Origin: Mobula hypostoma
Taxonomy: Eukaryota
Direction of reading: 5' to 3'
Length of the DNA: 64,000 bases
Assembly (NCBI RefSeq): GCF_963921235.1
Contig: NC_086108.1
Coordinates: 68,388,001-68,452,000, forward strand
Both the position numbers and the translations under genes were made by a program. Shown here piece after piece: positions 6,530 to 63,329 of this stretch. The notes beneath the pieces were generated by a model that saw only the letters and a program-made list of their open reading frames with translations, was not told the origin of the DNA and searched no databases. Position 1 is the first letter of the stretch. The number at the start of each line of letters is the position of its first letter.

Positions 6530-8300
6530 CTGATGTAAAATATTGAGGCTCTGGTCAAGGAAAAGAAGAAAACATACATTTGATTAAGAAGGCTGGGATT
6601 GAGCAAATCCCTTGATGGCTATAAAAAGATAATGAATTCTCCTAAGAGAGAAATCAGGAGGGCCAAGTAAAGATATAATAGTCAGGCAAAATTCCAAGAG
6701 ATTCTCCAGCTGTATTAAGAGTAAAAGGGTGGCTGGGGGGAGAATTTCTGTTCCTTAGAGTTCTGCAGGGCTACCTACCTATGACTTGTGCCTCAGGAGA
6801 TGGGTGGAATTTTTTAATAAATATTTCTCCTAGGTGTCTTCTGCAGAGAAACTATGGTCACTCAAAAGATAAGGGAAACTAGTGGAGAACTTTGGAGTAC
6901 ATTCATATTTCCAGAGAGGAAGTATTTGCAGCTTTACTGCATATTGAGGTGGATAGATTACCAGACCCTCCCTGAGTGCATCCTTGGACTTTGTGGGAGG
7001 TTAGTGAAGAAATTGTGGAGTGCACTGCAAAGATATTTGCTTCATCATTCATCACTGGTGAAGTTCCTGTAGACTGGAAGATGGTTTATGTTGTTCTGTT
7101 ATTAACCACTACTCTACCATGGTGCCCATATAAGGTGGACTATAAGGGATGGAGTTCAACCCGGAGAAGTGTGAGGTGGTACACTTTGGAAGGACAAACT
7201 CCAAGGCAGAATACAAAGTAATTGGCAGGATATTTGGTAGTGTGGAGAAGCGGAGGGATCTGGGGATACATGTCCACAGATCCCTGAAAGTTGCCTCGCA
7301 GGTAGATAGGGTAGTTAAGAAAGCTTATGGGGTGTTAGCTTTTATAAGTCGAGGGATAGAGTTTAAGAGCCGCGAGGTAATGATGCAGTTCTATAGAACT
7401 CTGGTTAGGCCACACTTGGAATACTGTGTCCAGTTCTGGTCGCCTCACTATAGGAAGGATGTGGAAGCATTGGAAAGGGTACAGAGGAGATTTACCAGGA
7501 TGCTGCCTGGTTTAGAGAGTATGCATTATGATCAGAGATTAAGGGAGCTAGGGCTTTACTCTTTGGGGAGAAGGAGGATGAGAGGAGACATGATAGAGGT
7601 ATACAAGATATTAAGAGGAATTGATACAGTGGATAGCCAGCGCCTCTTCCCCAGGGCACCACTGCTGAATACAAGAGGACATGGCTTTAAGGTAAGGGGT
7701 GGGAAGTTCAAGGGGGATATTAGAGGAAGGGTTTTTACTCAGGGAGTGGTTGGTGCGTGGAATGCACTGCCTGAGTCAGTGGTGGAGACAGATACACTAG
7801 TGAAATTTAAGAGACTACTAGACAGGTATATGGAGGAATTTAAGGTGGGGGGGTTATATGGGAGGCAGGGTTTGAGGGTCAGCACAACATTGTGGGACGA
7901 AGGACCTGTACTGTGCTGTACTATTCTATGTTCTATAAATGTTTACAACTATGTGAGTCATAAGGTGGATGGTAACAGTCTTTTCTGCAGGGTAAGGTGG
8001 AGCAAAACTAGGGGGCTTGGATTGAGGGTGAGAAGAGAAAGATTGAAAGTGGTCCTGAGAGATAACTTCTTCACTCAGGGTGTGGTGTGTATATACAGTG
8101 AGCTAGCAGAATAAGCATCTGAGGCCGGTACAGTAGTATCATTTTAGAAACATTTGGTTAGATACCTGGAGGGGTGGGGTTTAGAGGGAAATGGACTGAA
8201 TGTTGGAAATTGGGACCAGCTGGATGGGCACCATGTTCAGTTTAGACAGGTTAGGCTGAAGGATTGATATCTGTGTTGTATTGCTTATGATTCTATGACT
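6530..8300 (+). mobile_element. Old CR1 remnant (6530-7100 and 7933-8300) split by a younger CR1
   Basis: Degenerate ORF2 motifs (GEVPVDWK..V, FFTQGVV) on both sides of the 7148-7932 insertion. Confidence 0.6.
7148..7932 (+). mobile_element. Young 5'-truncated CR1 LINE (end of RT, C-terminus, 3' UTR)
   Basis: ORF 7149 MEFNPEKCEVVHFG...[15 protein letters not shown]; ttctatg-type tail; nearly identical to 24129-24918. Confidence 0.92.
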
Positions 8301-22677: not shown

Positions 22678-24986
22678 TTAGATTAGGTTATGAGGACACT
22701 CAGTCCTCATTTATTGTCATTTAGAAATGCCTGCATTAAAAAATGATACAATGTTCCTCCAGAAAGATATCACAGAAACACAGGACAAACCAAGACTAAG
22801 ACTGACAAAACCACATAATTATAACATATAGTTACAACAATGCAAAGCAATACCGTAATTTGATAAAGAGCAGACCATGGGCACGGTAAAAAATAAGTCT
22901 CAAGTCCCGATAGCCCCATCATTTCACGCAGACGGTAGAAGGGAGAAACTCCCTCTGCCATGAACTTCCAAGCGCCGCAAACTTGCTAATGCATTGGAAG
23001 CACTAGACCACAGCCGACTCTGAGTCTGTCCGAAAACTTCGAGCTTCCGACCAGCCCTCTGACACCGAGCACCATCTTCTGTCAAGCACTTCGACCCCGC
23101 CCCAGCCGCCAAGCAACAAAGCCGAGGACTCGGGGCCTTCCCCTCCAGAGATTCTTTATCACACAGTAGCAGCGGCAGCGGATCAGGCATTTCGGAAGTT
23201 TCACCAGATATTCCTCTGTGCTCTCACGTCTGTCTCCATCAAATCAGGATTGTGCACGGCACCCTACTTGACAGATGATGGTGACAACAATATGAGTGAG
23301 GTTGATGTTCTGGAGTATGTTGATATTAAGGGAGAGGAGGTGTTGGAGTTGTTAAAATACATTAGGACGGATAAGTCCCCAGGGCCTGACGGAATATTCC
23401 CCAGGCTGCTCCACGAGGCAAGAGAAGAGATTGCTGAGCCTCTGGCTAGGATCTTTATGTCCTCATTGTCCACGGGAATGGTACCGGAGGATTGGAGGGA
23501 GGCGAATGCTGCCCCCTTGTTCAAAAAAGGAAGTAGGGATAGTCCGGGTAATTATAGACCAGTGAGTCTTACGTCTGTGGTGGGAAAGCTGTTGGAAAAG
23601 ATTCTTAGAGATAGGATCTCTGGGCACTTAAAGAATCATGATCTGATCAGGGACAGTCAGCATGGCTTTGTGAAGGGCAGATCGTGTCTAACAAGCCTGA
23701 TAGAGTTCTTTGAAGAGGTGACCAGGCATATAGATGAGGGTAGTGCAGTGGATGTGATCTACATGGATATTAGTAAGGCATTTGACAAGGTTCCACATGG
23801 TAGGCTTATTCAGAAAGTCAGAAGGCATGGGATCCAGGGAAGTTTGGCCAGGTGGATTCAGAATTGGCTTGCCTGCAGAAGGCAGAGGGTCGTGGTGGAG
23901 GGAGTACATTCAGATTGGAGGATTGTGACTAGTGGTGACCCACAAGGATCTGTTCTGAGACCTCTACTTTTCGTGATTTTTATTAATGACCTGGATGTGG
24001 GGGTAGAAGGGTGGGTTGGCAAGTTTGCAGATGACACAAAGGTTGGTGGTGTTGTAGATAGTGTAGAGGATTGTCGAAGATTGCAGAGAGACATTGATAG
24101 GATGCAGAAGTGGGCTGAGAAATGGCAGATGGAGTTCAACCCGGAGAAGTGTGAGGTGGTACACTTTGGAAGGACAAACCCCAAGGCAGAGTACAAAGTA
24201 AATGGCAGGATACTTGATAGTGTGGAGGAGCAGAGGGATCTGGCGGTACATGTCCACAGATCCCTGAACGTTGCCTCACAGGTGGATAGGGTAGTTAAGA
24301 AAGCTTATGGGGTGTTAGCTTTCATAAGTCGAGGGATAGAGTTTAAGAGTCGCGATGTAATGATGCAGCTCTATAGAAGTCTGGTTAGGCCACACTTGGA
24401 GTACTGTGTCCAGTTCTGGTTGCCTCACTATAGGAAGGATGTGAAAGCATTGAAAAGGGTACAGAGGAGATTTACCAGGATGCTGCCTGGTTTAGAGAGT
24501 ATGCATTATGATCAGAGATTAAGGGAGCTAGGGCTTTACTCTTTGGAGAGAAGGAGGATGAGAGGAGACATGATAGAGGTGTACAAGATAATAAGAGGAA
24601 TAGATAGAGTGGATAGCCAGCACCTCTTCACCAGGGCACCACTGCTCAATACAAGAGGACATGGCTTTAAGATAAGGGGTGGGAAGTTCAAGGGGGGTAT
24701 TAGAGGAAGGTTTTTTTACTCAGAGAGTGGCTGGTGCATGGAATGCACTGCCTGAGTCAGTGGTGGAGGCAGATACACTAGTGAAGTTTAAGAGACTACT
24801 AGACAGGTATATGGAGGAATTTAAGGTGGGGGGTTATATGGGAGGTAGGGTTTGAGGGTCGGCACAACATTGTGGGCCCAAGGGTCTGTACTGTGCTGTA
24901 CTGTTCTATGTTCTATGTTATGATAACAGATATCACCACCGGAGTGGCCGCTGTGAGCTGCATCGCGCCGCCATCTTCTCATCCTG
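22678..24986 (-). mobile_element. Non-autonomous retroelement B, nested in A and interrupted by CR1
   Basis: CAAAAGA duplication at 22671-22677 and 24987-24993; minus 5' end AAGATGGCGGCG; 3' tail gacaataaa...(taatc)n. Confidence 0.7.
23274..24918 (+). mobile_element. Young 5'-truncated CR1 LINE with an open RT domain (ORF 23250-24755)
   Basis: SPGPDGIFP, GNYRPVSLTSVVGK, SQHGFVKGRSCLT, DISKAFDKVPH, PQGSVL, KFADDTK; no endonuclease or ORF1; frameshift in the T-run near 24711-24717; ttctatg tail. Confidence 0.95.
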
Positions 24987-48995: not shown

Positions 48996-51257
48996 TGATG
49001 ACCTCAAAGATCCAAAATTTAGCCAGAAAAGTAAAGGAAGCATAACTAAAGTTTACATAGGTAAAATTAGACCTCATCTTTGTGGAACATAACGATCGCA
49101 GATAAGTTCTCAACCAGGCGACTAGGAAGACCGAAGTGGCCATGAAATGCCCATAGTGCACAGGATCAAGATAAACCCCAAGACAAACAAGGACGTAATG
49201 ATGAGGCTTTATAAAGCATTGGTGAGGCCTCAGAGTATTGTGACCAAATTTGGTTCCTTATCTAAGAAAGGATATGCTGACATTGGAGAGGGTTCAAAGG
49301 AGGTTCATGAAAACGATATTGGGATTGAAAGGCTTGACATACGAGGAGCTTTTGATGGCTCTGGGCCTCTGCTCACCAGAATTCAGAAGAATGAGGGGTG
49401 AACTCACTGAAACTTATCGAATGTTGAAAAGCCTCAACAGAGTGGATGTGAAGAGGGTGTTTCCTATGGTGAGGGAGTCTAAGATCAGAGGACACAGCCT
49501 CAGAATAAAGGGTGCCCTTTTAGAACGGAGATGAGGAGGAATTCCTTTCACCAGAGATATGCAGCTGTGGGGATCAAGTTGTTGTGTATGTTTAAGGTGA
49601 GGTTGATAGATTCTTGATTGGTCAAGGCATGAAGGGATAGGGGAGAAGGCAGGAGATTGGGGCTGAGAGAAAAATTGGATCATCCATGATGAAATGGAGG
49701 AACAGACTCCATGGGCCAAATGGCCTAATTCTGCTCCAATGTCTTCTGTCTTAATCCAAGATACAGTGAAAATTTGGTTTCACATACTGATCAAACAGAT
49801 CAAATCGTTCCACAATACATTGTGTTTGATAACTCTGGGTCTATAGTGACTAGAATTCAGAAGAATGAGGGGTATCGTCATTGAAACCTATCGAATGATG
49901 ACAGGCCTTGATAGAGTGGATGTGGAGAGGATGTTTTCTATGGTGGGAGAGTCCAAGGCCAGAGGGCACAGCCTCAGAATAGAGGGGGGGTCCTTTTAGA
50001 ATGGAGATGAGGAGGAATTTCTTTCGCCAGAGAATGGTGAATCTGGAATTCATTGCCATATGCAGCTGTGGAGGTCAAGTCGTTGTGTATATTTAAAGTG
50101 CGGTTGGTAGCTTCTTGATTAGTCAGGGCATGAAGGGATATGGGGAGAAGGCAGGAGATTGGGGCAGAGAGAAGAAAATGGACCAGCCATGACAAAATTG
50201 GTGAGCAGACTTGGTGGGTCAAATAGCCTAATTCTGCTTCTATACTTTATGGTCTTGTGTTAAGAAAATGAGAATAACTCAGGAGCGGGTAGTTCTACTC
50301 AAGGATAAAGGAGGGAGTTTGTGCTTGCAGTCAGAACAAGTAGCTGAGGTATTACCTAAGTATTTTATTTCAGTATTTACCAAGGAGAATGATTTGGAGG
50401 GAATGTTAATGTATTGGGCCAGTTTGAAATTAAGGAGGAAGTTGTGCTGTCTTCTAAAAAGCATTAAGGTGGATAAGTCCCCATGCTCCATTGGCCTATA
50501 TTCTAGAATGTTGAAAGAAGCAGGTGAGGCCTGGTAAATAGCAAATGTTATGCCTTTGTTCAAAATAGGAAATAGGGATAATCCACCTTAGTGCTAGGAA
50601 AACAATCGGAGAGGACACTGAGGGAAAAGATTCATGTATATTTCAAAAAGCCTGGTCTACTTAGCAACAGTCAGCTTGGCTTCGTGCAAACAGGTTATGC
50701 TTTACAAACCTGATCAAGTTCGTTGAGCAAGTGGAAAAGGAACATTTTGAGGGTAAGGCAGTGGCCATTATCTACGTAGTTTCATGACATTTGTTAAGAC
50801 TCCTCAAATGATAATGATGCATGGGATTTCGGGTGAATTGAGAGTTTACATTCAGAACTGGCTTACCCAAGAAAGACAAGGAGCCAAGGCTGTTATGCTG
50901 CCTGGAGGTCTTCTGCAGAGTTTCGTGCTGGAACCTCTGTTTGTGATATTTAACAATGATTTGGATGAAAATGTAGATGGGCTGATTATCAAGTTTGTGG
51001 GTGACACCAAAATTGGTGGAGTTGTAAAGGACTATCAAAGAAAACCATGGGATATAGATCACTTACAGATATGGACATTAAATGGCAGATGGAGTTTAAT
51101 CTAGGCAAATGTGAGGTGTTGCACTTTAGGTGATCAAATGAAGGAGAAAAGTATGCAGTTAAAGGTGGACCCCTTTATAATATTGAGGTAAAAAGTTCAT
51201 AATTTTCTGAAAGGGACTGCCCAAGTGGTTAAGACGGTAAAGAAGGAGTTCTTTTTA

Positions 51258-55037: not shown

Positions 55038-56039
55038 CACTGGACAACAAGGATAAGAAAATCTGCAGATGCTGGAAATCCAAGCAACACACACAAAATG
55101 CTGGAGGAACTCAGCAGGCCAGGCAGCATCTATGGAAAAGAGTAAACAGTTGACGTTTCGGGCTGAGACCCTTCATTAGGACTATCTTGATGGGTCTCAG
55201 TCTGATACTTCGACTGGTTACTCTTTTCCATATACGCTGCCTGGCCTGCTAAGTTCCTCGAGCATTTTGTTTTTTTTTCCAAAAGTGTTGCTTCCCCAGA
55301 ATTATTATATGATAGACTGCTTAAAGCTGAACACACATATAATTTCAGACTACTTGTATCACATAGGAATTTGGAGAAACAAATTAACTTTTATTGAATA
55401 TATTGTGTTTAATTGCATATCAGTGTTGACACTTTGCAATAGTTCATCTAAGCTAAACATGTTTTGGTGATGATTTTTGTTTGTACTCAGTATCTGAGGC
55501 TTCTCACTTGTGTCCAACAATGATCAGCCAGCACTGATGGATTCCAGTTGCCCTGATACTGTTTCTCCGTGACCACAAGGTCCTGGTAAAACCTTTCACC
55601 ATGCTCGTCACTGACTGCGCCAAGATTTGCAGGGAAGAAGTCTAAATGGGAATGCAGAAAATGAATCTTTAGTGGCATGTTGTACTTCATGGTTTTGTAT
55701 GTTTGAGGCAATTTCTCAACCAGCCGCTTGTAGTTCGGTGTTCTGTAGTTGCCAAGAAAATTTTCAGCAACATCCTTTAATACCTTCCATGCCTTTTTCT
55801 CCAGTCCCACTAGAAGTTCTTCAAATTGCCTGTTTGATTTGTAGACCAACAAAAATGCCTTCCCTAATTTTTGCGTCAGTTATTCTGACTTGAATTATGA
55901 ATTGAAATAACAAATTTAGGCAGTTTCAAAAAGATGGTGCATGACAAGGAAATTGCATGGTTATTTTCATGATCAGCAGTCCAAAATCCATAAGTTACAC
56001 CCAAAAGTATTCAGAAAGCAAAATCTTTGTTGTCCAATG
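55038..56039 (-). mobile_element. Chapaev-like (CMC superfamily) DNA transposon, internally deleted, with transposase C-terminus
   Basis: TIRs CACTGGACAACAA (55038) and TTGTTGTCCAATG (56039); ORF 55487-55852 NMPLKIHFLHSHLDFFPANLGAVSDEHGERFYQD; Penelope fold-back inserted at ~55055-55270. Superfamily assigned from the CAC termini and HxxH...E motif. Confidence 0.7.
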
Positions 56040-57569: not shown

Positions 57570-60500
57570 ATCAGTGAGAGGAAGAATAGGATGATCTGGC
57601 AGATGAATGAATTGCTGAGGAATTGGTGCAGGGGACAGGATTTCAGATTTCTGGATCATTGAAGTCTCATCTGGAGAAGGTATGACCTGTGCAAAAAGGA
57701 GGTGTTACACCTGAACCCAAAGGGGACCAATATCTTTGTGGGCAAGTTTGTTAGAACTGTTGGGGAGGGTTTAAACTACTTTGGTGGGGAATGTGAACTG
57801 GAATGATATGGCTGAGGATGGGGCAATGGGTATACAAGTAGATGTAGTGAGACTGTCAGGAAGGAGAGGCAGATGATAAACCAAAATTGCAGTCAATGGG
57901 AGAAGTTGAACTGTAACTTGGCAAAATCAAAAAGGGTGATGAATACATGACTGAAGCTCTCAGATTAGAATGTACACAGTATATAGAATAAGATTATCCT
58001 GTAACGCATTTAGGGATTGGCAGATAAGACGTTGTGGGCATCACTGAGTCATATCTGAAAGAAGATCATAGTTGAGAGCTTCGCTGTATACACATTGTAT
58101 CGAAAGGACAGGCAGGTAGGTAGAGGGGGTTGAGTGGTTCAGTTGATAAGAAGTGAAGTCAAGTCATCAGAAACTGGTGACATAAGATCGGAAGATGTAG
58201 AATCAGTGTACATAGAATTAAGAAACTCAGAAGACCCTGATGGGAGTTATATACAGGCCTCTAAATAGTAGCCAGAATGCGGAAGACAAATTAAAACGGG
58301 ATGGAAAAGGCATGTAAAAAGGGGGATTTCAATAAGTAAATTGGAAAAATCAAGTTGGTAAATCCCAAAAGAGGCAATTTGTAGAATGCTTATGAGATAA
58401 CATTTTAGAGCAGCTTGTGGTTGAGTACACTAGAGGAAAGGCAGTTCTGGATCGGGTGTTGTGCAATGACCCACATTTGAATGGGGGGTTTAAGGCAAAG
58501 GAACCTTTAGGAGACGCTGATCAAGACAGGATAGAATCAGCCTGCAGTTTGAGAGGGAGAAGATAAAAACAGATGTATTAGTATTACAGTGGAGTAAAGG
58601 GAGAGAGGATCTGGCCAGAGTTGATTGGAAGGGAACACTAGCAGGGATGATGGCAGAACATCAATGGCTAGAGTTTCTGTGGGCATTTTCAGAAGGCACA
58701 GATAGATTAGATTAGATTCAACTTTATTGTCATTGTGCTGAGTACAGATACAAAGCCAATGAAATGCAGTTAGCATCTAACCAGAAATGCAAAGAATAGT
58801 GTTATTTGCAAAATAACTGCGAATAAAAAGTAAGTGCTACAGCACACAAATATAAAAGTACTGAGACAGTACAATATGGGTGCAATACTGCTTAGCGCTG
58901 TGATGTGAGGTTCAGCAGAGTCACAGCCTCAGGGAAGAAGCTCTTCCTGTGCCTGCTGGTGCGGGAACGGAGGCTCCTGTAGCACCTACCAGATGGGAGG
59001 AGAGTAAAAAGTCCATGGTTAGGGTGAAATGTATCCTTGATAATGCTTTTCACCCTGCCCAGGCAGCGTTTATGGTAGATGTTCTGAGTGGTGGGCAATT
59101 GGATGCCAATAATCCTCTGGGCAGTTTTCACCACACGCTGGAGTGCTTTGCGGTCCGATACGAGACAAGGTCTGAAGGTAGATAAGTCACCTGGACCAGA
59201 TGGGCTACTCTCCAGGGTTCTGAAGTAGGTAGCTGAAGAGATTATGGAGGCATTAGTAATGATCTTTCAAGAATCACTAGATCCTAGAATGTTTATGGAA
59301 GACTGTAAAATTGCAAATGTCACTCCATTCTTTAAGGTGGAGGGAGGCAGAAGAAAGGAAATTATAGGCCAGTTAGCTTGACATCAGTGGTTGGGAAGAT
59401 ACTGGAGTCCGTTATTAAGGATGAGGTTTCGGGATACTTAGAGTGCGTGATAAAATAGGCCAAAGTCAACATGATTTCCTTGAGGGGAAATCTTGCCTGA
59501 CAAACCTATTGGAATTCATTGAGGAAATAATGGACAAGGTAGACAAAAGAGAGTTAGTGAATGGTGTTTACTAGGAGTTTCAGAAGGCCTTTGTCAAAAA
59601 GGGTAAAGGGTAAACAGTCAATATTTCGAGCCAAGGCCTTTCATCGGGACTGGAATAAAAGGATGAGAAGTCAGAGTAAGAAGGTACCTTACTCAAGCTG
59701 AAGGAACTCAGCTGAAGCATCAACTGTTTACTCTTTTCTGTAGATGCTGCCCCTAGCATTTTGTGTGTTTGTTTTGGATTTCCAGTATCTGCTGATTTTC
59801 TCTTGTTTGTGATTGGGTAAAGGGGAGCCTTTTCTGGTTGGCTGCCAGTGACTAGTGGCATTCCACAGGGGTCAATGTTGAGATTGCTCCTTTTCATGAC
59901 AGAATCATATGTCAACGATTTTGATGACAAAATTGGTGCCTTTGTGGTCATGTTTGCAGACTATACAAAGATAGGTGAAGGGGCAAGTAGTGCTGAGGAA
60001 GCAGGGAGTCTGCAGAAGGACTTAGTTGGGTTGGGAGAATGGACAAAGAAGTAGCAGATGGAATATAGTGTTGGGAAATATATGTTCTGGCACTTTGGTA
60101 GAAAGATAAAGGCATTGAGTATTTTCTAAACATGGAGAAAGTTCAAAAACAAAAGGTGCAAAGGAACTTGGGTTGAGTCCTTACTACTGACTCTAAAGTT
60201 GAGTCAGTGGTAAGGAAGGTAAATGCAATGTTATCATTCATTTTGAGAGGTCTAGTATATAAGAGAAAGAATGTGTTGCTGAGGCATTGGTTAGACCATA
60301 TTTGGGGTATTGTGAGCAGTTTTGAGCTTTTAAACTTAAAAAAAAAAGATATGCTGGCATTGGAGAGGGTGCAGAGGGTGTTTGTGAGAATGATTCCAGG
60401 AATGAAAGAGTTAACATATGAGGAGCGTTTGGTGGCTCTGAACCTGTACTCGCTGAGTTTTAGAAGAATGAGAGGGGATCTCATTGAAAACTATCGAACA

Positions 60501-60811
60501 TTGAGATGTCTGGATGGAATGGATGTGGGGAGGATGTTTATCATAGTGGGTGAATCTGTGACTGGAAGGGCACAGCCTCAGAATAGAGGGACGTCCATTT
60601 ACAACAGGGATTAGGAGGAATTTCTTTAGCAAGAAGGTAATAAATTTGTGGAATTTATTGCCACAGCTGTGGAGGCCAAGTTATCGGGTATTTTTAAGGT
60701 GGAGGTTGATAGGTTCTTGATTAGTTAGTGTGTCAAGGGTTATGGGGTAAAGGCAGGAGGATGGAGTTGATGGATAAGAAATCAGCCATGACAGAATGGT
60801 AGAGCAGACTC
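57570..60811 (+). mobile_element. Degenerate CR1 (end of ORF1 esterase, ORF2 with deletion, 3' UTR); its tail continues at 63018-63066
   Basis: LHLNPKGTNI esterase end, VIYRPLNS, KSPGPDG, SGIPQGSML, MFADYTK, LERVQRVF; tail split as gagcagactc|...|gactcaattggcc..tggcctaattctg. Confidence 0.85.
58702..59165 (-). mobile_element. Rex1-type LINE 3' end nested in CR1
   Basis: Minus ORF VKTAQRIIG..SIIKDTFHPNHGLFTLLPSGRCYRSLRSRTSR; (taatc)n tail. Confidence 0.85.
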
Positions 60812-60930
60812 TGTTGTATATTTAATACTTCAGTAGTATTTGAATAATATTGTAAATATATTGCTTGATTAGGCATTCTTGTTCATTTAAATAATTCATT
60901 ACGGTTTATATAGAAATTACGTGAATGGCA

Positions 60931-61234
60931 GGGGTGATTGATAAGTTCGTGGCCTATGGTAGAAAAAGATGAGTGATACAGCTCTCGTTACATGTGCATG
61001 CAGTTCAGCTCTTTGCGTGATTATGCAGAAAGTTTGAAGTTAATAACTCATCTCTTTCTACTTATCAATCACCCCTGCTGTGGGCACTTTCTGGAGGTCC
61101 AAGATCCGTATGCTCCACGACCGCTGGACTAAGTGTGTAAATGTTGGAGGGAACCATGTTGAAAAATAAATGTGCTAGGTTTTCTAAAATTGACTCCTTC
61201 TACCTTAGGCCATAAACTTATCAATCACCCCTCA
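60931..61234 (+). mobile_element. Mariner-derived non-autonomous element inserted in the 5' LTR
   Basis: TIRs GGGGTGATTGATAAGTTCGTGGCCTATGGTAGAA and TTCTACCTTAGGCCATAAACTTATCAATCACCCCTCA-TA; transposase C-terminal remnant RWTKCVNVGGNHVEK*. Confidence 0.85.
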
Positions 61235-61839
61235 TATGTCAAGCAGACAAAAAAATGGATTGCACAGGGAAAAGGAAAAGCTAAAAAGTCAAGTTACAGT
61301 TTCAGAAAAGCACTAACTTACATGCTGTTGATGAAAAATCTGATGAGAGTGACACAGGTCTAGGTAGCCTTGAGATTCAAAATGTGAAATTAACAATGGA
61401 CAAGCAATTTGGCTTACACTAGAAGTGAATGGCAAATTAATTAAAATGGAATTGGACACTGGCTTAGCTGATTCGGTCATTCCATAAAATGAGTTTCAAT
61501 GGCATTTCAAAGATACTAAACTGAAGCCTACAGATATCCAACTAAGAAATTATACTGGAGAAAAGATGACCCCTGTGGGAATGGCATTTACACCAGTGAA
61601 ATACAACACTCAGCAACCCACATTGGGTCTGTCTGTATTAAAAAGAACAAGAAGGCCAGCATTGTGGGCTCCAGAGTAGCTGAGACAGCTAGCTACAAAT
61701 TAATTGGAGATCCATCCACAGTTTGCATGCCATGTCCTCTATAATAGAGTCAACCAAAAGCGAATTTGAAAAAGGTACTGGTTGATGACACAATTGTCTC
61801 CATGCTGTACGCCATGAACCATTGCTCAACAGAGGGGAA

Positions 61840-62390
61840 ACGGGTGTTGCACCAACTTCTGTGCCTCTGGGTTGAAGGCATATTGGACCAAGCAAGGACC
61901 TTGCTGCCAGGAGTAATCGGGAAAGTGACGTAAGCAGTGGTCCGACTACAAAAGGTTTGTAGGCAACATACCTGAGAAAGCTTCTGATATGTTAACCGGG
62001 CAGTTAATTTTGAAATGTGGCTTGGTTTTAAGCTGGGAGAGTGTTCTAGGAGCTTTAGGAAAATTGCAAGCATTCGGCTTTTGTGAATATAAAGAACTGA
62101 AATCTACTATGTGTACGTTAAGATTATTGCATGAATTTCAAGTGGGAGACAAAAAGCTGCTTGTTAGAGTACCATGGATACAAAGACCATAGCCCAGCTG
62201 GATGAGTGGAAGGCCAAAAAGAAAGGAGATACAAAAACAGGCTTCATCAGATGATATTGATGTGGAAACCAAGAGGAGAGATCAGATCGTAAAAAGAGCA
62301 ATAGAAGGATTAATAAGAGAATATTCCAGTGAACTAAATGCACCTTCCCAAGATCAAGATGCACATCCTAGAAATACGAAAAAGAGCAGG
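61840..62390 (+). pseudogene. RBM25: Intronless RBM25 fragment (RRM and following helix) inside the LTR element
   Basis: Across frames: GPTT/FVGNIPEKASDMLTGQLILKCGLVLSWESVLGALGKLQAFGFCEYKELKSTMCTLRLLHEFQVGDKKLLVRV/DTKTIAQLDEWKAKKK/DVETKRRDQIVKRAIEGLIREYSSELNAPSQDQDAHPR, matching the RBM25 N-terminal region as I recall it; one stop and at least three frameshifts. Confidence 0.9.
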
Positions 62391-62778
62391 ATAAAGAGAG
62401 ACAAAGAAGTTGGGTCCGGAAGAGGAGCAAGGGTTGAAATAGATCCAGAGAGAAAAGCTGAGGAAAGGAGAAGAAAGATGTCCGGAGCTGTCAGAACTAC
62501 TTCCTGCTGTCCCAGAGGCGACCCCTACAACCATGGAGGGGGCCCCAGAACTTGAAATTGTTTCACAGCCACAAGTCTCACCTGCCAAGCAGAATATTTG
62601 CCCTTGTCAGAAAACACATTATCCCACAAAAGTAAGAAAGACTCCACAGTAATTAAAGCTTTAGGCCTGAATGGGACAATTTAAAGGTTACTATCTGGTT
62701 GTATTATATTGAATACTGTATATATAGTTGAGATGCATTCTCTATTGAGTTGACGTTTTTAAGCTGAGCAGGGAGGAG

Positions 62779-63017
62779 TGTTGTGTATTTAATATTTCAG
62801 TAATGTTTGAATAATATTGTAAATATATTGTTTGATTAAGCACTTGTTTAAATAACTTATTACTAGTTATATCCAAATTACGTGATTTGCATACGTCATC
62901 ACACTACCACATGATATGTGTGTACCTCCCTTAATAGTAAAAACAAATTAAGACTTGCATCTCTTAGGCGTCTGTCTTTTTCTTTAATTTTGTATCTTGG
63001 TGTTAGAAAATGAAATG
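62779..63017 (+). repeat. 3' LTR (239 bp); the 5' LTR survives only as 60812-60930
   Basis: The first 64 nt of the two LTRs differ at about 6 positions by eye. Confidence 0.85.
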
Positions 63018-63329
63018 GACTCAATTGGCCAGCTGGCCTAATTCTGTTCCTATGTCTATGGTCTTACAAGCTTACTTTCACAAATATTGTAATAATATAA
63101 TGAATATGACCCTATTCTTTATTCTAGCTGTTGTAGCCATTAAGTTCTTAAATGATTTCACATAACTTTTGTGCATAGCAAATTCTGGAAAAGCTAACTG
63201 CTAAAAATAAAGCCTTTAACATATATAAAAACAATTAAGCATAACCCTTTTTACTCATTTTTATAACTGACCCCCTCCTTGAAAATTAAAATATCGATAG
63301 CACAAAATACTGGGGAAGCTGTGAATTAA

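Follow-up and report, generated by a model that had tools for sequence, protein, structure and literature searches.

A decayed Gypsy-derived LTR element in Mobula hypostoma bears spliced RBM25 sequence instead of a pol core and likely belongs to a large family spread in trans

How does sequence from a host splicing factor come to stand where an LTR retroelement should encode its enzymes, and how far has the combination spread? The question is raised by an element within 64,000 nucleotides of Mobula hypostoma DNA (contig NC_086108.1; hereafter the window), which a first-pass annotation described as a Gypsy-type element holding an intronless RBM25 mRNA fragment. We conclude with good confidence that the element is a Gypsy-derived copy in decay, that template switching likely captured the spliced RBM25 sequence in a single event, and that the chimera then likely reached hundreds or thousands of places by mobilisation in trans.

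A LINE tail as insertion site, and a damaged 5' end

The element (60812-63017; Table 1) is a single insertion into the 3' tail of a LINE, with GACTC duplicated to its left (60807-60811) and right (63018-63022), as first described. A single LINE tail, split by the element, makes up both flanks: aligned with an uninterrupted tail elsewhere in the window, the left flank runs to 49709 and the right flank starts at 49705, so that the two overlap by exactly 5 bases, and the chance expectation for a 5-mer match at the flanks is ~0.001. The sequence at 60650-60811 resembles five other places in the window at 71-78%, and the right flank matches 49705-49753 at 82%. The polypurine tract (PPT), likewise reported, was recovered with purines at 12 of its 13 positions, so that both a target site duplication (TSD) in the 4-6-bp range and a PPT, which are Gypsy features, are present.

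LTRs flank the chimera on both sides. Of the two previously described, the 3' LTR stands (239 nt), whereas the 5' LTR survives only as a 118-nt piece that aligns with its counterpart over 60812-60929; the 3' LTR's remaining ~125 nt lack a counterpart in 60930-61320 (score 17, equalled in 107 of 200 shuffles). The 3' LTR terminates in TG, not CA. LTR divergence, which had been proposed as a means of dating, amounts to 15 differences over 112 columns (60812-60929 versus 62779-62891), a K2P distance of 0.149 ± 0.04.

Table 1 Coordinates of the element, its parts and its insertion site within the window
Feature	Position	Strand	Evidence
LINE 3' end, left part (insertion target)	60177-60811	+	ORF remnant 60177-60614; similarity to other window copies
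TSD GACTC, left	60807-60811	+	
5' LTR remnant, 118 nt, starts TGTTG	60812-60929	+	alignment to 3' LTR
Later-inserted TIR element, MITE-like	60930-61236	.	35-nt arms 60930-60964 and 61198-61232, 91% complementary
gag tail, broken; fused to TIR element after loss of LTR rest, PBS and most of gag	61237-61394	+	tblastn matches from 61294
Aspartic protease remnant (DTG 61455, stop 61485-61487)	61395-61691	+	homology to polyproteins
Protease-RT linker, frame change near 61770	61693-61795	+	aligns to P0184 382-408
RBM25 piece 1: VSMLY..EGK exon, RRM (61956-62171), next helix; several frame breaks	61796-62382	+	tblastn P0003, P0124
RBM25 piece 2: RE-rich region (RSREKS), after internal deletion	62383-62476	+	contigs of X18/X21; tblastn P0034 316-390
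Likely extreme C-terminal pol tail	62477-62652	+	position before PPT; by-eye motif likeness
Polypurine tract	62766-62778	+	
3' LTR, 239 nt, starts TGTTG, ends TG	62779-63017	+	right end set by TSD
TSD GACTC (63018-63022) and remainder of LINE tail	63018-63075	+	

The TIR element in the 5' LTR, presumably Tc1/mariner-like, fills 60930-61234 proper, is followed by TA at its right end (61235-61236) and has no second copy within the window; a third, 19-nt copy of its arm lies at 61060-61078. The gag remnant abuts it directly, and no PBS follows the 5' LTR, this region being deleted. The U5/PBS/gag deletion adjoins the TIR element and its ends share ~5 bases (by eye, 61237-61241 can be assigned to either the LTR or gag); the TIR insertion may have triggered it. 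An LTR element without a PBS cannot be reverse-transcribed, so the loss of the PBS and of 5' LTR sequence presumably happened after insertion. Having lost its PBS and part of its 5' LTR, the present copy is immobile as it stands.

Elsewhere in the window, a 582-aa LINE-type ORF (23007-24755; RT by Pfam RVT_1, E 3e-33) is close in sequence to a 322-aa ORF at 7146-8114, marking a younger LINE family. An ARAGORN tRNA-Ser call (22980-23070) overlaps the start of the 582-aa ORF and is probably spurious or SINE-derived. A 130-aa ORF on the minus strand (55487-55879) has no Pfam match; we take it to resemble a DNA-transposon protein (HSHLDFFP..SDEHGERF).

RBM25 sequence replaces the pol core

The protease motif DTG at 61455 was confirmed. 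The protease frame has 880 relatives at E ≤ 0.001 in a full scan (best 55%), the closest being fish and frog polyproteins; a word-indexed protein search with the same frame yielded 0 of 42 candidates, and the Pfam match is weak (E 0.09). The gag part of the remnant first described was found only as a broken tail at 61237-61394, most of gag being gone.

A domain scan of eight protease relatives found RT and RNase H downstream of the protease in five and integrase too in four. None of these three domains was found in the element: the 150 protease relatives listed match it by tblastn only at 61294-61773, and because polyproteins with these domains match nowhere else in it, RT, RNase H and integrase are gone, in agreement with the first-pass annotation, which had seen no RT or integrase core. 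The RT-RNase H-integrase order that follows the protease in intact Ty3/Gypsy elements is absent, and for lack of these domains we call the element Gypsy-derived rather than an intact Gypsy member. The break point lies in the linker just upstream of RT. At the other end, the C-terminal pol tail reported earlier agrees in position and in its by-eye likeness to the C-terminal RYP-x-R-x-R-x-PP of P0184, P0198 and P0233; the putative tail (62477-62652) gave no tblastn or Pfam match. In sequencing run X1 (see below), summed contig depth over 62531-62596 is 58,000-115,000.

Between linker and tail, ~680 nt of RBM25 sequence in two pieces (61796-62476) occupy the place of RT, RNase H and integrase. 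RBM25 has taken over from the pol core rather than merely interrupting it. The RBM25 identity first proposed for ~550 nt covering the RRM and the next helix was upheld and the length was not, since the sequence begins at 61796 and includes a second piece at 62383-62476. Piece 1 matches P0003 over 61802-62390 (tblastn, E 1e-57); high-depth X18 and X21 contigs fit only 62383-62476 in piece 2 and continue as RBM25 on either side. In the protein search with the cargo, 208 of 274 candidates were scored, and among the 120 listed all gene-named ones are RBM25 or RBM25-like, the others being unnamed or generic. Both protein searches have Heptranchias RBM25 (XP_067833824) as best match, the outcome anticipated by the annotation. 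Pfam RRM_1 falls below the cut-off (E 0.004). Matches in PDB were distant RRMs only (U2AF65 and others) and uninformative. No RBM25-gag/pol fusion protein occurs among the 120 and 84 matches listed, a weak negative as the copies are broken.

The cargo starts upstream of the RRM with a VSMLY..EGK segment found in P0003, P0123 and P0124, which together with the Heptranchias match points to a cartilaginous fish as the likely host. The VSMLY..EGKQ segment (61796-61843) is present in the shark proteins P0003/P0123, also in P0124, and in none of six other compared proteins; it is likely a cartilaginous-fish-specific exon with a 4-residue splice variant.

Four exon borders are fused in the window (61843/61844, 62012/62013, 62070/62071 and 62227/62228), all contiguous, as expected of the intronless fragment first described; the borders were placed with the help of proteins of other vertebrates that read through, skip or vary at them, and not from the Mobula gene itself. 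The evidence for them comprises two RBM25 isoforms 4 residues apart at EGKQ/V, three of 72 proteins that diverge immediately after IRQLLA and another three that read VRQLLA-VSTGQ, an insertion at KLQ/A in 17 of 146 proteins, 27 single-exon read-through ORFs (P0131-P0157) and four proteins that end just past KKxxxG. Breaks of X21 contigs near 61843 and 62012 (a 173-nt record) also fit exon borders, as a weak hint.

Neither poly(A) nor a separate TSD was found beside the RBM25 insert, as had been claimed: the longest A run is 4 and words common to both sides are no longer than 4. The hallmarks of a LINE-type processed pseudogene are thus absent from the insert. This copy is dead, with frame breaks, an LTR distance of ~0.15 and changes at 16 of 72 RRM residues, compared with 0-5 differences from P0003 in 105 other RBM25 proteins.

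Related copies in public contigs

Contigs of seven of 24 listed sequencing runs were aligned, representing five organisms in all; X1 is possibly the same sample as the source of the window. Window positions 61640-62600 were searched at 80% likeness, a filter that drops more diverged copies. Contigs bearing on co-transcription from the LTR come only from runs presumed to be RNA; among the 24 runs listed, none listed as RNA carries the sequence, and low-depth diverged contigs of X18 and X21, which may be DNA, were not counted as expression.

Over these 961 bases, 7,721 contigs aligned in X1 and 7,179 in X3. The present locus is represented exactly over 61640-61985 in X1 (depth 17) and near-exactly in X3 (depth 8). 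Relative to that contig, the depth over 17 RBM25 bins is 83-3,469-fold in X1 and 127-3,985-fold in X3 (medians ~800 and ~900), where summed contig depth is not copy number and overlapping contigs are counted twice. Read from contig depth and not from assembly loci, the RBM25-carrying family likely has hundreds of copies at least, perhaps low thousands. The possibility that the element is multicopy, left conditional in the first-pass annotation, is in this sense borne out by contigs of five organisms; within the 64-kb window there is no second copy of the chimera.

Copies sharing the 5' junction, which the annotation had suggested counting, were found in four organisms (X1, X9, X10 and X12), whose contigs traverse 61796; over 61700-61910 (211 bases) these runs have 585, 631, 624 and 447 contigs, respectively. 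Depth does not drop across the junction (5,629, 7,664 and 7,360 in X1) and amounts there to ~310-520 times that of a single contig in X1, X9, X10 and X12, with the divisors of the last three set by eye. No loose ends occur in 61772-61848 among the 24 rows listed (431 more exist). At least 20 letters on each side of 61796 are present in 12 of 32 listed pieces, 11 of which are ~13-19% unlike the window, and 2 of the 32 satisfy a 31-letter crossing rule. On the 3' side, RBM25 passes straight into the tail, at 62530 or 62561, in contigs of X1, X3, X18 and X21 (15 listed of 345 joints), and some contigs carry a KLEEEKG-like RBM25 stretch (by eye) that is missing from this copy. One X1 contig goes from the pol tail (62584) back to 61801, as a tandem cargo or a rearrangement.

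At 34 of 36 listed cargo sites (327 further rows lie beyond the listing) the majority of X1 depth has the same letter as the high-depth X21 contigs. A 9-nt piece (GVN) is present in high-depth X18 contigs and in P0003 and in none of a depth of 20,726 in X1 and 8,995 in X3, although short contigs may render such a piece as a loose end rather than an insertion, as seen in X21. Its absence from all listed contigs of DNA runs points to one capture followed by amplification. The missing 9 nt (window 62224-62228) form an exon end, and one possible reading has them begin with GT; an alternative donor may thus have been in use in the mRNA that was captured, and slippage between two GGA fits equally. 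Divergences are alike for LTR versus LTR (0.13-0.15), copy versus copy (13-18%) and copy versus mRNA (11-17%), as expected from one old burst. Judged from sequence comparison, the pattern points to a longer fragment that was captured once and amplified in a burst, with separate deletions and decay afterwards.

Two close contigs possibly represent this same insertion in related species: one of X3 (organism B) departs from the window by 2 differences and a single gap over 189 bases of 61778-61984, and one of X12 (organism E) has 11 differences in 133 bases within the same interval.

Capture, spread and alternative explanations

The scheme that we favour would begin with RBM25 mRNA co-packaged with element RNA. 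RT would have departed from the element within the protease-RT linker (~61790-61796), continued on the spliced mRNA and switched back to the element in the last pol codons (~62476), and the resulting hybrid, with LTRs, PBS and PPT, would have been amplified by the enzymes of an intact relative. Its copies would keep one 5' junction and diverge by internal deletions in the purine-rich cargo. The present copy inserted into the LINE tail with a 5-bp duplication; entry of the TIR element into the 5' LTR, loss of the PBS and most of gag, and decay are all visible, presumably in that order. Template switching is inferred as the capture route, with hints of microsimilarity at the switch points. The proposal of the first-pass annotation, a host mRNA segment captured and mobilised in trans as a chimera, is supported by RBM25 as the best match, by the absence of poly(A) and of a separate TSD, and by the replaced pol core.

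The 5' join could instead have been made by splicing, from the linker of an element in or upstream of RBM25 to the VSMLY exon, with a later template switch making the 3' join; splicing followed by one template switch is the classical model of retroviral oncogene capture. The 5' junction lies at or just before the exon start (within ~9 nt), P0124 reads ATT/VSMLY, and one X21 contig departs from the window exactly at 61796. However, at 61788 and 61794 the majority of the other copies have letters unlike those of the window (75 and 76 X1 contigs), and with these letters the codons preceding 61796 match the ATT of P0124, which suggests a switch a few bases inside the upstream RBM25 exon. We therefore regard a spliced 5' join as unlikely.

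The cargo is most likely a passenger. A role for it is possible because the 5' join is in frame: the last linker codons read into RBM25 (KVLVDDTIV-SMLY; P0184 linker), gag and pol share one frame in the relatives P0184 and P0233, and the family is very large. Master elements would then have made a Gag-protease-RBM25 (RRM) polyprotein that aided spread, a host splicing-factor domain standing in place of the enzymes and serving to package RNA, control splicing or evade decay; the hybrid would have outpaced the autonomous element from which it arose, and selection would have acted on its cargo in the master lineage. An in-frame join nevertheless has a one-in-three chance, the RRM of this copy is far more changed than those of other RBM25 proteins, and many different cargo deletions are tolerated among copies, so that we give a used cargo slightly less credence again than a spliced join.

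Contig depth by itself is no proof of dispersal, and segmental or tandem duplication of a region with one chimera might have produced the copies, a reading into which the X1 contig returning from the tail to 61801 would fit; with its own TSD inside a LINE and no neighbouring copy in the window, the present element makes this very improbable. A LINE-made processed pseudogene that landed in the element later, with the depth coming from many separate RBM25 pseudogenes, is largely refuted and more improbable still: the window is rich in LINE sequence, and a recent preprint, in its available text, reports many retrocopies in cartilaginous fishes (10.64898/2026.06.26.734816), but the insert has neither poly(A) nor a TSD of its own, the pol core is missing, and diverged copies of four organisms share the junction. 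An assembly artefact has a negligible probability, for although no listed contig spans the whole stretch, overlapping X1 contigs are identical to 61640-61985 and a contig of X3 agrees with 61796-61984 except for 2 letters and 1 gap.

Significance and comparison with known systems

The capture mechanism is already published (Tan et al. 2016, PMC5131818), and the unusual part here is scale. Literature searches, with the supplements of two preprints, Repbase and Dfam outside their scope, returned no account of an RBM25-carrying element or of another such gene-carrying family this large. The main text of the Squalomix preprint (10.1101/2025.06.08.657570) mentions neither RBM25 nor retrocopies nor Gypsy, and no mention of RBM25 was found in the available text of preprint 10.64898/2026.06.26.734816. 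The latter links the number of retrocopies in vertebrates to non-LTR elements and reports 14,081 retrocopies in cartilaginous fishes, with MIPOL1, SUDS3, SDF2L1, SLU7 and ZNF276 as top parents; these are unusual as ordinary retrocopy parents and may be further cargoes amplified by mobile elements.

If our reading holds, a single LTR-mediated capture can grow into a major vertebrate repeat family, beyond the few-copy cases of animals. Many datable copies of one cargo would allow a test of whether captured sequence aids the spread of a non-autonomous element, and of whether silencing of such a family affects the host gene. Cargo amplified by LTR elements would also inflate retrocopy counts and blur both the annotation of RBM25 and the mapping of reads.

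Among Gypsy elements, the fish Mag type (PMC11117352, as far as its available text goes) is similar in its short LTRs, 200-300 bp there and 239 here, and in a single gag-pol frame, which here is seen only in the closest relatives P0184 and P0233. Any Mag affiliation is tentative, as the element retains no RT, and Gmr elements are also single-frame and CsRN1 elements also have short LTRs.

Pepper NLR retroduplicates (Kim et al. 2017, PMC5664825), numbering 86-123 per genome in the text available, are likewise host-gene cargo in mostly non-autonomous LTR elements amplified in trans. They differ in being from a plant and in comprising many whole NLR genes under purifying selection, whereas the RBM25 element carries one gene fragment, decayed in this copy. 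Maize Bs1, as summarized by Tan et al. (2016, PMC5131818), is also an LTR element with captured exonic sequence and switch points common to all copies, but it is again from a plant, has one to five copies and draws on three parental genes.

The closest counterparts are the LTR-mediated retrocopies described in fly and mosquito, in zebrafish and chicken, and in mouse and human (Tan et al. 2016, PMC5131818), a survey whose available text includes no cartilaginous fish and which models double template switching onto co-packaged mRNA followed by spread in trans. As there, a partial spliced mRNA replaces part of an element ORF, with LTRs on both sides, introns absent, and no poly(A) or TSD of its own; non-autonomous secondary spread with a switch point in common is a further likeness, read here from contigs and not from an assembly. 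Unlike the cases of that survey, in which nine fly retrocopies occupy 18 insertion sites and each species has 1 to 8 cases, the RBM25 family likely has a single cargo in hundreds to thousands of copies, shared by five organisms.
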